Assembly: GCA_963835915.1 (NCBI GenBank)
Contig: CAWIHE010000004.1
Location: 696,248 to 760,247 of the forward strand
Reading direction: 5' to 3'
From: Candidatus Uhrbacteria bacterium
GTDB lineage: Bacteria > Patescibacteriota > Patescibacteriia > 2-12-FULL-60-25
Length of the DNA: 64,000 bases
Under the pieces are notes generated by a model. It saw only the letters and a list, made by a program, of their open reading frames with translations, was not told the origin of the DNA and did no database searches. The position numbers and the translations under genes were made by a program. Position 1 is the stretch's first letter. Every line of letters starts with the position of its first letter. This document shows positions 2,021-64,000 of this stretch, one piece after another.

Positions 2021-2100
2021 GAGTAGTAGTTGGCAGTGAATAGTTGCAGTCAACCGTAAATATCTGGCTATTCCTACTGCTACTGCCACTACCAACTATT
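2021..2100. repeat. Imperfect TAG/CTA-rich intergenic hairpin (family E)
   Basis: gagtagtagttggcagtgaatag ... ctattcctactgctactgccactaccaactatt; the arms are partly complementary. Confidence 0.5.
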
Positions 2101-2115
2101 AGTATTAACTCAGTC

Positions 2116-2994
2116 ATGACGACCAGTGGACTGAAACGCATTACTCTGATCGGCATCGCGGCCGTGATCGTGATTGTCGTCCTTGCGGTTGCCGTGATTT
2201 CCGTTTCGCACGGGAAGGCCGTCCATCCGCCGGTGAAGCCGAGAACGGATCTGGCGAAGATCGGCGATTTTCCGGCGACGTCGACGGATGCGGATGTGAA
2301 GACGAAACTCCTCAACGCATTTCGGGCCGGACGGCTCGCGGAACTCTGGTCCGGCGATATCCCGAACGGGAACGGGCGTCTCGTCCTCGCCGCACCGACG
2401 CCGGATGGGACGTCCGAAACCGGATCATGCTCGGATGCAGGCCGTCTCTGCGCGTTCTACGTAGCGGGCGGCGCGGAGGGCGCGGGAAGACTCCTCATCG
2501 CTGGAGAACGGGTTACGGGGTTCCGCGCGGTTGAAGCATTCCAGGATGACGGCCATGCGCGGATTGCGACGGAATTTTCTCTTTACGACTACTCGAACGT
2601 GAGCCGTTATCTCCTCGATCTGAAGAACGGCAATCTCGTTCCGCTCCTCGTCCTCGAAATCGATTCGGACGAATCGTCGTCCGCCTCGCTCCAGGCGAGC
2701 GGGTATGGCTCCATCCTCAAGCTCGCGATCAGCGGAACCCGGACGAACGGACGATTTACCCCTTCGAAGGTCGACGTGACCGAGGATGACGGTGCCGTCA
2801 TTTCATCGCTTGACGCCTCGTCCGTCGCGCGTCTCGCGAAATCGTCCGCCTCCGCCGACCAGCCCGTTCCGGCGATCACGATCAGCCCGTCGAATGACGA
2901 TACGCGCACGCTCGCCATCGGCATCGAACTCTCCGGCGTCCCGTACGTGTTCGATCTTAAGTCGAAGACGCTTGATTCGGTGATGAGTCAGTGA
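2116..2994 (+). CDS. Hypothetical membrane-anchored protein
   Basis: ATG 2116 gives MTTSGLKRITLIGIAAVIVIVVLAVAVISV (N-terminal TM helix). The ORF-track start (TTG 2044) lies inside the hairpin. TGA at 2992-2994. Confidence 0.65.
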   Translation: MTTSGLKRITLIGIAAVIVIVVLAVAVISVSHGKAVHPPVKPRTDLAKIGDFPATSTDADVKTKLLNAFRAGRLAELWSGDIPNGNGRLVLAAPTPDGTSETGSCSDAGRLCAFYVAGGAEGAGRLLIAGERVTGFRAVEAFQDDGHARIATEFSLYDYSNVSRYLLDLKNGNLVPLLVLEIDSDESSSASLQASGYGSILKLAISGTRTNGRFTPSKVDVTEDDGAVISSLDASSVARLAKSSASADQPVPAITISPSNDDTRTLAIGIELSGVPYVFDLKSKTLDSVMSQ

Positions 2995-3053
2995 GTTAAT
3001 AGTACAGAGTATGTAGTAATAGTAGGACGCGCGGATCCATTCTGAACTATCAA

Positions 3054-3076
3054 CTACAAACTACAAACTACAAACT
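3054..3076. repeat. Tandem heptamer CTACAAA x3 upstream of dnaJ
   Basis: ctacaaactacaaactacaaact, preceded by tagtaatagtagga (family E-like arm). Confidence 0.8.
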
Positions 3077-3081
3077 GAGCC

Positions 3082-4158
3082 ATGCCCCGCGACTACTACG
3101 AAATCCTCGGCGTCCCGAAAGGTGCGAGCGAAGACGATCTGAAAAAAGCCTTTCGCAAGAAGGCCCATGAATTGCATCCGGACAAGGGCGGGGATGAAAA
3201 GGCGTTCAAAGAAGTGAACGAGGCGTATCAGGTGCTCGGCGATGCGAAGAAGCGCGCCGCGTACGACCAATTCGGCCATGCGGCGTTCCAGCAAGGCGGC
3301 GCAGGTGCCGGTCCGCAGGGATTCGGCGGATTCAACGTCAACTTCGAGGACATGGGCGACCTCGGCGACCTCTTCGGGAACATGTTCGGGTTTGGAGGGG
3401 CGGGCGGGACGTCTCGCGGCGGACAGAGGCGTCGCGGGAACGATGTCGAAGTCCGCGTCGAGATCACGTTCATGGAAGCCGTCCGCGGCACGGAGAAGAC
3501 CGTGAGCTATCGCGCATTGACGGCCTGCGAGGCGTGCGGAGGATCAGGAGCCGAAAAAGGGTCCAAGACGGTCTCATGTCCCGCGTGTAAGGGTTCAGGA
3601 CGCGTCACGCGCCTCCAGCAGACGATCCTCGGATCATTCCAGACCGTCGCCGCGTGCGAGAAGTGCCGTGGCACGGGATCCGTCCCCGAGCGGACGTGTC
3701 CATCCTGCCACGGGAACGGTGTCATCGGCGCGAACCGGACGTTCTCCGTGTCGATTCCCGCCGGCATTGATGACGGCGAGTCGATCAGGGTCTCGGGATC
3801 CGGTGAAGCGGCGCCACACGGCGGAGCCGCTGGCGACCTCTACGTCCACGTCCGCGTGAAAGTAGATTCGAGGTTCACGCGCGAAGGGAATGACGTTGTG
3901 AGCGAGGCGTATGCGCCGATGTCGGCGTTCGCGCTCGGAGGGAAGATCGACGTCGAAACCGTTGACGGTCCCGTCGAACTGAAAGTCCCGGCAGGGACGG
4001 ATGCCGGAACCGTCTTCCGGCTCCGCGGCAAAGGGATCCCATACCTGCGAAGCCACTCGCGCGGAGATCACCTCGTCACGCTGAAGCCGGAAATTCCAAA
4101 AAAGCTTTCGCGCGAACAGCGGAAGCTCCTTGAGGGACTCTCTGGTATGGGGCTCTAA
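3082..4158 (+). CDS. dnaJ: Co-chaperone DnaJ (Hsp40)
   Basis: J domain DYYEILGV...HPDK, G/F-rich linker, four CxxCxGxG zinc-finger repeats ([32 protein letters not shown]). Confidence 0.97.
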
Positions 4159-62157: not shown

Positions 62158-62193
62158 CCCGAACGACCATCAAGAACTCCTCGCACCGCTCCC

Positions 62194-62227
62194 GCCCCTG
62201 CAGTTTCGACTGTGGGGGCCTTTTTTA
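62194..62227 (+). terminator. Rho-independent terminator
   Basis: gcccctgcag-tttcga-ctgtgggggc followed by cttttttatt. Confidence 0.65.
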
Positions 62228-62229
62228 TT

Positions 62230-62307
62230 GAGTGGTTGAGTGGATGAGTAGATGAGTGGGGTTCCTTTGATGCCCACTCATCTACTCATCCACTCAACCA
62301 CTCATCC
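62230..62307. repeat. Family H hairpin (GAGTGGAT octamer arms) upstream of dnaG
   Basis: gagtggttgagtggatgagtagatgagtgggg-ttcctttgatg-cccactcatctactcatccactcaaccactcatcc. Confidence 0.9.
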
Positions 62308-62348
62308 ATTACACTTGATTCCTCCTGCATTCATGGCACACTGTGCGC

Positions 62349-64000
62349 ATGGACGCCGTCGAAGAAGTGAAGTCCCACCTGGACATCGTCGATATCGCCG
62401 CGGAATACCTCCAGCTCAAGCCCGCCGGGAGCGGGAGTTTTAAGGCAAACTGCCCGTTCCACCAGGAAAAGACGCCGAGCTTCTACGTGAACCGCCAGCG
62501 GCAGAGCTGGCACTGCTTCGGGTGCGACAAGGGCGGGGACGTCATCTCGCTCGTCCAGGGGATCGAGGGGATGGATTTTCGGGATGCGCTCGCGCACCTC
62601 GCCATGAAGGCCGGGGTCACGCTCCCCGCGTTCAACACCGAAGCGGCGGGGGAGCGGAAGCGGCTCCAAACCGTCAACGACCTCGCATCACGATTCTTCA
62701 GATCCATCCTCCTCCAATCGCCGGATGCGGGACATGCCCGCGAGTATGCGGAGAAACGGGGGATCGACGACCTTACGGGAGACCTCTTTCGCATCGGCTA
62801 CGCGCCGAATTCCTGGGACGCGCTCACGACCGCGCTCAAAGCGAAGGACGTTACGGATGACGAACTCCTCCGCGCAGGCCTCACCGCTCCCAGCCAGCGC
62901 GGGACCGGATCGTACGACCGGTTCCGTGACCGATTGATGTTCGCGATCCATGACGTTCACGGGAACATCATCGGCTTTACGGGACGTCTCTTGAATCCGG
63001 ACGCGAAAGAAGCGAAGTACGTCAACACGCCCGAGACGGCCGTCTTCAAGAAATCTTCAGTCCTCTACGGTCTCGACAAGGCGAAAGGAGATATCAAATC
63101 AAAAGACCTCTGCGTCCTCGTCGAGGGCAACATGGACGTCGTCTCGAGCCACCGCGTCGGCATCGCAAACGTCGTCTGCCCCGGCGGCACGGCGCTGACC
63201 GCGGACCAGCTCCGGCTCATCGCGCGCTTCACGAAGAACCTCGCAATCGCCTTTGACGCGGATGCGGCCGGCGTCAACGCGACGCTCCGCGGACTCGACC
63301 TCGCGCGCGCGGAGGATTTCTCAATCCGCATCATCTCGCTCCCGGACGGCATCAAAGACCCTGACGAGGCGATTGCCAAGGATCCGGCGATTTGGACCAA
63401 TGCGATCCGCGACGCCGTAGACATCATGGAGTGGGTCTTCCGTCTCGCGTTCAAAGGGAAAGACCTCTCCAACCCGAACGACAAGCGCGAGATCGCGCGC
63501 ATCGTCCTTCCGGAGGTCAAACGCATTGCAGATCCGATCGTCCGCGACCACTGGATCCAGAAGCTCGCGAAAGCGCTGGAGACGAGTGAAGATGCGCTCC
63601 GGGATGCGCTCAAAGGCGTTAAAGGATTAGGCCAGCGGGCCAGCGGGCCAGCGGGCCAGCGTCAGGAGGCCCACTCATCCACTCATCCACTCACCCCCTC
63701 ATCTACCCGAGGCCGCGACCTGGCCGAGCGCATCGTCTCCATCATCCTCTCGAAACAGGCTCCGCGGGCGTGCATGCCGGCGAATCTCCATGACCTCCTG
63801 CCCGGCGACCTCCGCGCCCTTTACATCCGCGAGACCGAGGGTTATGATGTCCCCCGATTCAGTGAGGGATCACAACCGGCGGACCCTTTAGCGGCCCCGG
63901 ACCAAACGATCGATCACCTCATGAACATGCTCGCGATCAGGTTCGATCGCGATTACCCAAACCAAACCGCGGATGCGCTCGCATCCGAAATCGAGGCAAG
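62349..64000 (+). CDS. dnaG: DNA primase DnaG; 3' end outside window. Not in the ORF track because no stop falls within the window.
   Basis: Frame is open from ATG 62349 to the window end. Zinc finger CPFHQEKTPSFYVNRQRQSWHCFGC; TOPRIM VLVEGNMDVVS...DADAAG. Repeat-encoded insert at 63630-63708. Confidence 0.93.
   Translation, partial: MDAVEEVKSHLDIVDIAAEYLQLKPAGSGSFKANCPFHQEKTPSFYVNRQRQSWHCFGCDKGGDVISLVQGIEGMDFRDALAHLAMKAGVTLPAFNTEAAGERKRLQTVNDLASRFFRSILLQSPDAGHAREYAEKRGIDDLTGDLFRIGYAPNSWDALTTALKAKDVTDDELLRAGLTAPSQRGTGSYDRFRDRLMFAIHDVHGNIIGFTGRLLNPDAKEAKYVNTPETAVFKKSSVLYGLDKAKGDIKSKDLCVLVEGNMDVVSSHRVGIANVVCPGGTALTADQLRLIARFTKNLAIAFDADAAGVNATLRGLDLARAEDFSIRIISLPDGIKDPDEAIAKDPAIWTNAIRDAVDIMEWVFRLAFKGKDLSNPNDKREIARIVLPEVKRIADPIVRDHWIQKLAKALETSEDALRDALKGVKGLGQRASGPAGQRQEAHSSTHPLTPSSTRGRDLAERIVSIILSKQAPRACMPANLHDLLPGDLRALYIRETEGYDVPRFSEGSQPADPLAAPDQTIDHLMNMLAIRFDRDYPNQTADALASEIEA
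63630..63708 (+). repeat. Tandem octamer GCCAGCGG x4 plus a family H arm, in frame in dnaG
   Basis: ggccagcgggccagcgggccagcgggccagcg ... cccactcatccactcatccactcaccccctcatctaccc encodes GQRASGPAGQRQEAHSSTHPLTPSST. Confidence 0.85.

Follow-up and report, generated by a model that had tools for sequence, protein, structure and literature searches.

That bacteria contain more tandem heptamer arrays than expected has reportedly been recognised since 1990, and the details of the short tandemly repeated repetitive (STRR) sequences used for comparison below are said to come from Mazel et al. (1990). Two kinds of palindromic repeat stand beside them: the REPINs, reportedly characterised by Bertels and Rainey (2011) as inverted doublets with a centre more variable than the arms and without target-site duplication, and the Rickettsia palindromic elements (RPEs), which Ogata et al. 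(2000) are said to have found in frame inside conserved protein genes. In the present study a stretch of 64,000 nt from a Candidatus Uhrbacteria genome (contig CAWIHE010000004.1, positions 696,248 to 760,247 of the forward strand) was analysed; this whole stretch is referred to as the window. Its subject is a set of hairpins, found in many intergenic spacers, the arms of which consist of tandem 7- or 8-nt units. The preferred reading, to which a probability of roughly 0.5 is assigned, is that these elements are lineage-specific, DNA-level repeats, selfish or nearly neutral, in the form of short palindromes with arm modules of ~28-35 nt and about four 7- or 8-nt units. Their behaviour is best read as that of REPINs, MITEs (miniature inverted-repeat transposable elements) or RPEs, built from STRR-like heptamer and octamer arrays.

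In many bacteria, according to the summary of Mrazek (2007) in PMC4679880, no class among the long simple sequence repeats, whose units span 5-11 nt, is more abundant than the heptamers. Rehm et al. (2015, PMC4692102) described arrays of the heptamer GGGAATC in Xanthomonas, most of them with four units; each genome has 70-75 pairs in convergent inverted orientation, which can form stem-loops. The repeats are mostly intergenic, lie nearer to the upstream open reading frame (ORF; ~28 nt) than to the downstream one, are transcribed, and differ in length and presence between related species. According to the same paper, Calothrix and Nostoc contain several heptamer families, and only few of the Nostoc arrays are inverted-paired. 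Heptamers in 3-4 copies were reported to affect promoter activity in Nostoc, and a binding partner was postulated (preprint 10.1101/2022.06.06.494920). In marine Beggiatoaceae, TAACTGA arrays of 2-6 copies are overwhelmingly intergenic and include "split" arrays with variant units; the unit occurs in distant phyla, direct arrays stand just upstream of start codons, and one inverted pair was reported (MacGregor 2015, PMC4679880). The tandem repeats of Borgs are pervasive, recent, located in spacers and in frame in genes, and absent from relatives (Schoelmerich et al. 2023, PMC9879509). General features of MITEs are collated in PMC2229807. The statement in the preliminary description of the window that no formal description of such a design was known had to be withdrawn, since the Xanthomonas arrays share the design and heptamers are a known over-represented class. 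No paper on repeats of GAAGCTG, or on elements of this kind in Patescibacteria, was found in the literature search, and the GAAGCTG string matched primer sequences only.

Arrays were located with Tandem Repeats Finder (TRF) and with a strict detector of our own, which required at least three copies and at least 80% matches and was controlled with block shuffles. The two programs gave 31 strict arrays in the window, 18 with a 7-nt and 13 with an 8-nt period; for periods 5, 6 and 9-12 the strict detector gave none, and in block shuffles 0.05 arrays of period 7 were obtained. TRF reported dozens of period-7/8 arrays, most of them within some tens of bases of a partner array with the reverse-complement unit. 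Their copy number ranged from 2 to 4.9, with a mode near 4. Hairpins, defined by arms of at least 18 nt, complementarity of at least 85%, a loop of at most 120 nt and absence of overlap, numbered 18 (shuffle mean 0.05, maximum 1), and ~20 under looser settings. The existence of repeat-armed hairpins beyond chance is thereby confirmed, as is the claim that the stem itself is a tandem array of short units and that one design runs through many unrelated units, at least nine families in the window with all arrays of period 7 or 8.

Most arms are 21-39 nt long, with the exception of family B (~50 nt), and the loops span 5-79 nt; 20-40 nt and 7-35 nt had been given at first. Watson-Crick pairs occupy 516 of the 556 stacked stem positions, and the predicted RNA folding energies lie between -40 and -72 kcal/mol (z -8 to -15). 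Single arms are tandem arrays that do not fold on their own. A typical unit combines a conserved 5-6-nt core with one or two variable positions (e.g., TGAGTGGN, AGTCGRTN, ATTGYTYC, NNCGAAT), and paired arms agree even in these variable positions. Arrays are present in 26 of the 38 spacers of at least 40 nt, and ~20 of those 26 contain a hairpin; the earlier statement that almost every spacer holds a hairpin is corrected accordingly.

The families A-J distinguished by eye were all recovered (A, six hairpins; B, three elements; E, at least six loci; F, two elements; G and H, three loci each; I, two loci; J, one hairpin; C and D, one hairpin each and further arrays). The hairpins and spacer arrays are located as follows:

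24329..24405, family A hairpin, GGAAGCT/GGAATCT x4, loop of 13-21 nt, AGCTTCC x4, in the divergent spacer between a glyoxalase gene and pgi (dG -62.5, z -14)
29938..30011, family A hairpin, 12 nt 3' of a MacB/FtsX stop codon, arms of 28 nt, 100% complementary
31301..31373, family A hairpin, 13 nt 3' of the second MacB/FtsX stop codon
33013..33086, family A hairpin, convergent spacer before the clpB 3' end, the sole hairpin with a T-rich tail
41280..41344, family A hairpin, directly 3' of a canonical terminator (41238-41273)
46690..46742, family A hairpin of opposite polarity (CAGCTTC arm first), atpG-atpD spacer
19401..19519, family B element of ~119 nt, arms of five to six NNCGAAT octamers
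28593..28710, family B element, 5 nt 3' of an ABC-ATPase stop codon, arms of 39 nt, 100% complementary
48151..48277, family B element, atpD-atpC spacer, with an arm-asymmetric indel common to the element at 19401
23098..23187, family C hairpin of AGTCAACG octamers, gpsA/tRNA-Gln spacer
22054..22178, family D hairpin, GAGTCGT / ACTCACG, arms abutting the 3' ends of dnaX and gpsA, dnaX stop codon inside the 5' arm
20239..20339, family E hairpin, TAGTAGT/TAAATAG, enclosing a GC-rich inner stem-loop (20276-20302)
25775..25839, family E hairpin, 3' of the pgi stop codon
13866..13928, family E hairpin, decayed, 3' of cysS
42944..42973, + strand, family E array without an intact partner arm, atpE-atpF spacer
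44107..44188, family F element, atpH-atpA junction
56564..56643, family F element, 5' of uvrB, homologous to the element at 44107
54831..54899, family G hairpin of AGTCGATN octamers, filling the convergent M23-dus spacer
58814..58903, family G hairpin, 3' of uvrB, loop containing a small stem followed by T6
38304..38338, + strand, family G single arm (3'-arm form), between metG and cvpA
62229..62304, family H hairpin of TGAGTGGN octamers, just 3' of a canonical terminator and before dnaG, arms of 32 nt, 100% complementary
35792..35811, - strand, family I array, paired in inverted orientation with that at 38841-38869 at a distance of 3 kb
38841..38869, + strand, family I array, cvpA-tatD spacer
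55893..55969, family J hairpin of ATTGYTYC octamers, divergent spacer 3' of dus
3052..3076, + strand, single AACTACA array, upstream of dnaJ, 5 nt from its start codon
11956..11976, + strand, single TAATAGT array, 3' of the stop codon of a 1103-residue ORF

The families are multi-copy, and their members were copied as whole hairpins. The two family F elements align over the arms, the loop (CCGGCCGAATyyGATCCGTCC) and the outer ends. The three family B elements can be aligned over their ~50-nt arms and not in their centres; two of them (19401 and 48151) share an indel that sits in the 3' arm only, from which it follows that the hairpin was copied as a whole. In family A, a variant unit, GAATCTR, recurs in five of the six hairpins. 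The likeness within families is taken to reflect copying and not coincidence.

The elements are insertions relative to close relatives. Syntenic loci were compared in relatives with AtpD sequences 99% (P0002 contig), 93% (L200) and 87% (L202) identical to that of the window; the closest relatives are contigs of JGI sample 3300075153 and were compared through gene listings. The following junctions differ in length:

atpH/atpA junction, 103 nt in the window, overlap in relatives (GTATGA stop/start)
atpG-atpD spacer, 98 nt in the window, 14, 22 and 26 nt in relatives
atpD-atpC spacer, 149 nt in the window, 10 nt, 33 nt and overlap in relatives
junction of a hypothetical gene and uvrB, 91 nt in the window, overlap in the closest relative

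Presence/absence differences between orthologous spacers, the comparison proposed in the preliminary description, were thus seen against the P0002 contig, L200 and L202. The density of strict arrays is 0.48 per kb in the window, as compared with none in 50 kb of the 87% relative (L202-L204). In the 93% relative (L200/L201) each locus has 1-2 such arrays, and the figure for distant homologous loci fetched with atpD (1 Mb, taxa not determined) is 0.049 per kb. The 93% relative carries B-like elements and palindromes of family K only, at sites other than those of the window. Because most of the elements are absent from syntenic relatives and those present are located elsewhere, they are considered young, lineage-specific and subject to fast turnover. 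A metagenome scan with the atpD gene of the window gave a best match of 78% identity and thus no close relatives, atpD being too conserved.

At the atpH/atpA junction (44092-44203) the ancestral GTATGA stop/start is now found on both sides of an insert of ~100 nt, the family F element. Since GTATGA is duplicated around the insert, the translational coupling of atpH and atpA is broken in this lineage.

Family K proved to be a real palindrome of a separate kind, nested, without tandem arms, and common to the window and a relative:

49541-49684 and 48771-48897 (window), 8415-8536 (L200), about 9060-9190 (L201), K nested palindromes of ~125-145 nt

Their ends read TATGTCATCCCGA...TCGGGATGACATA and their inner arms GAGGGAT(A)TC, and both the window and the relative with the 93%-identical AtpD have conserved them. 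K is a separate MITE-like family that lacks tandem arms.

Insertion has occurred wherever it is tolerated, in any spacer class and usually just past the upstream stop codon. Arrays were found in 17 of 26 co-directional, 5 of 6 convergent and 4 of 6 divergent spacers. Co-directional hairpins begin 5-21 nt (median 10) past the upstream stop codon, and the next start codon is mostly 16-95 nt away. The intergenic placement first proposed applies to most arrays and not to several that lie in frame within genes:

57933..58005, + strand, uvrB insert, AGTCACG x4.4, spacer of 15 nt, CCAAACC x4
21596..21712, + strand, array pair in the dnaX linker, octamers GAGTCAAC x4 and ACCTACGC x4
63630..63703, + strand, array pair in the dnaG linker, octamers GGCCAGCG x4 and CCACTCAT x4
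13050..13085, + strand, family H array in cysS, CCCACTCA x4.5
33106..33136, - strand, family D array encoding the C-terminal tail of ClpB

The recurrent families represented among these coding arrays are C, D and H. Only one strand of each unit is free of stop codons, and that strand is used in UvrB, DnaX, DnaG, CysRS and ClpB; stop-free arrays have thus also entered permissive loops, linkers and tails of essential proteins. Through the uvrB insert, a loop with hypervariable sequence across Patescibacteria gains 20-22 residues, and the cysS array makes the loop before the WxSPWG motif ~12 residues longer than in the E. coli CysRS (PDB 1LI5). The coding array pairs do not fold (z about 0). In uvrB, dnaX and dnaG, each pair joins an array of a recurrent family (D, C or H) to a unit not arrayed anywhere else in the window; the two arrays have the same period and nearly the same copy number. 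A fourth pair at 1312-1388, which is uncertain, consists of a 7-nt and a 9-nt array and likewise joins a recurrent-family unit to one without an array elsewhere. The units ACCTACGC and GGCCAGCG form tandem arrays at their own sites only, as does CCAAACC, of which a few scattered single matches also exist.

For the reading as selfish or nearly neutral DNA-level repeats, the following course of events is envisaged. Arrays would arise through slipped-strand amplification with a bias towards 7-8 nt, and inverted pairs would be made from them by template switching or fold-back synthesis. The pairs would then spread without target-site duplication, for example by means of a hairpin-recognising single-strand transposase or by recombination, and later reshaping of the element centres might account for loops that differ between copies. 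When transcribed, each element would yield one and the same very stable stem-loop from either strand, and a change in mRNA decay or processing would probably be a side effect and not the reason for its existence.

Several observations weigh against this reading. The loops of family A are unrelated between copies, and only the arms align. The arms of one element match each other better (0.84-0.98) than the arms of different copies do (0.78-0.92), which selection for pairing would also predict. Flanking direct repeats average 3.65 nt, as compared with 4.06 nt at random sites, so that target-site duplication was not detected; the only exception is GTATGA at atpH/atpA, where stop and start codon both had to persist. 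No conserved target motif was found at the element flanks in the window. The window contains no matching transposase, and the ends and surroundings of its IS3 copy are unrelated to the elements; a Pfam scan of the 50 window ORFs gave no REP-associated tyrosine transposase (RAYT). The coding pairs composed of a family array and a unique unit (uvrB, dnaX, dnaG and the uncertain one at 1312-1388) are not explained by copy-and-paste of hairpins. Moreover, the view covers 64 kb of a genome of ~1.02 Mb. Of the common generating mechanism or MITE-like family that had been suggested at the outset, the families, their duplication and MITE-like presence/absence differences were borne out. Carriage by phages was considered and rejected: only four viral contigs contained the family A pattern and none the family B pattern.

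Alternatively, the hairpins could be selected RNA elements, that is, 3'-end protectors or processing sites by which polycistronic transcripts would be punctuated and relative mRNA stability set, comparable to REP sequences and bacterial interspersed mosaic elements (BIMEs) or to chloroplast 3' inverted repeats. This explanation is regarded as unlikely. In its favour, the co-directional hairpins keep close to the upstream stop codon and farther from the next start, the predicted stems are extremely stable, the arms of one element remain complementary despite differences between copies, the atp operon contains three hairpins, and transcription of the repeats is documented in Xanthomonas (PMC4692102). 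The palindromic design also yields the same stem from either strand; since an X-loop-X' palindrome is identical on both strands, any transcript would carry it. Strand-specific selection on RNA was nevertheless rejected, because stem mismatches comprise 7 G.U and 8 A.C pairs and hence no excess of G.U. Further points against selected RNA elements are the arrays in four of six divergent spacers, the single arms and non-folding coding pairs that belong to the same families, and the family F insert, which disrupts the ancestral overlapping stop/start of atpH/atpA. The absence of the elements from the same spacers in close relatives marks them as dispensable. The common role in punctuation or stabilisation of transcripts that had been proposed received no direct support from the mismatch counts, the missing elements in close relatives or the unfolded coding copies. 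Judged from sequence, the position of the hairpins, a median of 10 nt after stop codons, makes an influence on mRNA decay plausible.

An origin on the spot without mobility, in which a local 7-8-nt seed slips to about four copies and is mirrored by template switching or fold-back priming at a small hairpin, is held to be just as unlikely as selected RNA elements. Periods of 7 and 8 only and at most 4.9 copies suggest a mechanistic limit, and the unique units named above (ACCTACGC, GGCCAGCG and CCAAACC) are arrayed at their own sites only. The arms match perfectly down to the variants of the unit; in three hairpins a terminator-like stem that was there before is enclosed, and the palindrome of the family B element at 48151 runs 8 nt into locus-specific sequence. 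An origin at each site is contradicted by the full-length homology of the family F elements, the asymmetric indel common to two family B elements, the GAATCTR variant common to family A arms, and the occurrence of the same families at unrelated sites. Local seeds, moreover, are not above chance once unit rotations are allowed: near-matches (ATCACG and CCGAAAG in the uvrB gene of L202; GAGTGG by the cysS array; GGCCGAGCG by the dnaG array) were not significant with rotations, both strands and one edit. Two more specific mechanisms were also rejected. Slippage by one unit, favoured by a mini-hairpin from a 4-nt palindrome in the unit, fits families A, F and G and does not fit C, D, E, H and J. 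Telomerase-like addition at both 3' ends of a break would explain the convergent polarity and is weakened by polarities that differ between lineages and by the one family A element of opposite polarity.

The GAAGCTG unit of family A was also followed into other genomes. A scan for GAAGCTGGAAKCTRGAAGCTG in one genome per species returned at least 119 stretches, as compared with ~1 expected for a random 21-mer. The matches listed come from Acidobacteriota, Anaerolineae, Halomonas, Pseudomonas/Stutzerimonas, Flavobacteriia and others, and the 80 records listed of the at least 119 include none from Patescibacteria. Among the matches listed, inverted GAAGCTG pairs occur at 30 or more of the loci, and the polarity is fixed per lineage, with the C-rich arm first in Acidobacteriota and the G-rich arm first in Pseudomonadales, Halomonas, Anaerolineae and the window; such lineage-consistent polarity fits descent from founder hairpins. 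Acidobacteriota, Chloroflexi and Gammaproteobacteria thus have GAAGCTG hairpins as well; these lie between two genes in Stutzerimonas stutzeri and just upstream of start codons in an acidobacterial metagenome-assembled genome. The arrays reach 19 copies at the listed loci of other phyla, as opposed to at most 4.9 in the window. Heptamers with units other than that of family A are enriched at the matched loci too, with at least 95 arrays as compared with at least 18 of pentamers and at least 21 of hexamers.

A bolder proposal, which we consider doubtful, is that a dedicated and hitherto undescribed DNA-level process, enzymatic or RNA-templated and acting across phyla, writes paired modules of about four 7-8-nt units, as a complementary pair in spacers and as a family array plus a unique array, equal in period and copy number, in coding sequence. 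If it were true, it would explain the heptamer excess, the set point of four units, and the GAAGCTG hairpins from Patescibacteria to Acidobacteriota and Gammaproteobacteria.

It appears very improbable that the arrays are protein-binding sites on DNA or RNA, with one protomer per unit, that serve nucleoid organisation or gene regulation. A conserved core with variable positions and a constant number of about four copies would suit such sites, and the Nostoc heptamers with their promoter effects and postulated partner (10.1101/2022.06.06.494920) offer a precedent. However, at least nine unrelated units would call for many specific proteins in a genome of ~1 Mb, and the elements are missing in close relatives and are present inside coding sequences. 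Unusual intrinsic transcription terminators are less credible still, a reading refuted for the most part. The stems are stable and stand just past stop codons, but only 1 of 20 hairpins is followed by a T-run, and none is among the sites of the terminator scan, which finds other sites (terminator-like sites in the window being no more numerous than in shuffles). In addition, three hairpins interrupt the atp operon, four lie between divergent genes, and canonical terminators occur separately, inside the loops of the hairpins at 22054 (a bidirectional one, stem 22110-22135 followed by T5), 20239 and 58814 and just upstream of those at 41280 and 62229, so that the earlier distinction from ordinary terminators was upheld. 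Assembly or sequencing artefacts, conceivable in what is probably a metagenome-assembled contig, are the least probable explanation of all, given the unique flanks of each element, the reading frames kept in conserved genes, and the same architecture in isolates of Stutzerimonas stutzeri, Halopseudomonas and Oceanimonas.

Some further features of individual families were recorded. An AGTC/GAGTC core is common to families C, D and G (AGTCAACG, AGTCACG/GAGTCGT and AGTCGATN; e.g., at 23098, 22054, 54831, 58814 and 57933), and these families may form one superfamily, a grouping made post hoc. Known nicking enzymes recognise GAGTC. In the family C hairpin (23165-23192), the 3' arm contains repeated TTGACT hexamers 16 nt 5' of TATAAT and thereby agrees with the promoter consensus at 11/12 positions. 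The tRNA-Gln gene downstream has a promoter-like site of its own as well (23225-23253). The two family I arrays (35792-35811 and 38841-38869) bracket the TP_methylase, metG and cvpA genes, and metG is missing at this place in L202.

The G+C content is ~58% across the window. Its housekeeping genes comprise the 3' part of dnaK, dnaJ, cysS, dnaX, gpsA, pgi, clpB, metG and tatD, and it further contains a MacB-type ABC system, the atpBEFHAGDC operon, gltX, dus, uvrB and dnaG. Also present are a tail-fibre-like ORF and genes for a VirD4/TrwB-like ATPase and an IS3-family transposase. Among named sequences, those most closely related to AtpD and UvrB come from "Candidatus Uhrbacteria" and Patescibacteria. 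An Rfam 15 search of the window matched three tRNAs only, and no hairpin reached the gathering score. One of these tRNAs (14086-14162, - strand) was called by ARAGORN with an unassignable four-base anticodon, ggtg; Rfam confirms a tRNA there. Arrays are nearly absent from the first 12 kb and from the IS3 region. A 664-residue ORF (6701-8695, no Pfam match), inside which a 180-nt tandem repeat is located (7022-7365, 1.9 copies, 96% identity), is followed by the 1103-residue ORF, in which a Peptidase_S74 domain (tail-fibre chaperone) was recognised; acquisition from elsewhere may account for this region poor in arrays. Between uvrB and dnaG stand the IS3-family element (59571-60661, orfA and rve-domain orfB) and ORFs flanking it, whereas in the relative L205 the two genes are separated by one small ORF only. 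Just 3' of the IS3 transposase genes, a CT-rich element is present in two direct copies (60713-60907 and 61012-61214; ~200 nt, spacing ~300 nt) with internal palindromes CTCTCCTCTCATCCTCTTCAG...GAGAGGGGAGACTG.

The window constitutes a clean natural experiment, a recent burst of at least nine unit families with common rules in a tiny, compact genome. The relatives keep the empty sites, and CysRS, DnaG, DnaX and UvrB tolerate in-frame arrays. The generating mechanism, if identified, would explain a widespread feature of bacterial genomes and a source of new protein loops.

Among the described systems, the Xanthomonas-type pairs resemble the elements in having about four units per array, convergent inverted pairs (~20 here) and a position closer to the upstream ORF. 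There, a single G-rich unit was read as a G-quadruplex former, whereas at least nine unrelated, mostly non-G-rich 7- and 8-nt units occur here, at a far higher density for a 1-Mb genome and with in-frame copies in essential genes. In the GGGAATC-type test, GAAGCTG, TACGAAT and TAGTAGT, and also GGAAATT, AGTCGAT and ATTGCTTC, were without runs of three or more G; because the units are mostly non-G-rich, the G-quadruplex is not a general explanation, and the design has previously been described only for one G-rich unit under that reading. With the STRR and other long simple sequence repeats the window shares tandem 7/8-nt units beyond chance, a mainly intergenic location and several families; several tandem heptamers per genome, mostly intergenic and in 3-4 contiguous copies near gene ends, are also reported for that class. 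The spacer arrays here differ from Nostoc STRR sequences in being mainly paired, in host phylum and units, and in that octamers are as common as heptamers, and from the TAACTGA arrays of Beggiatoaceae in the dominance of inverted pairs just downstream of stop codons. REP sequences and REPINs likewise form inverted doublets as long spacer hairpins, singlets and genome-specific families without target-site duplication. A REP, however, is an imperfect palindrome with a conserved 5' tetranucleotide, mobilised by RAYT and strictly extragenic, while the arms here are tandem arrays, with no RAYT seen in the window and copies inside genes. The view that the elements are not REP/BIME in sequence was accordingly retained: single arms are tandem arrays, no motif is common to the families, and coding copies exist. 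RPEs and MITEs are similar as short multi-copy palindromes with presence/absence polymorphism and tolerance in frame; MITEs differ by a fixed internal sequence, target-site duplications and a parent insertion sequence, whereas the loops here are often unrelated, the arms microsatellite-like and the coding copies not palindromic. The Borg repeats are direct repeats only, in contrast to the elements of the window, in which the units are not multiples of three and the spacer arrays stand as inverted pairs.

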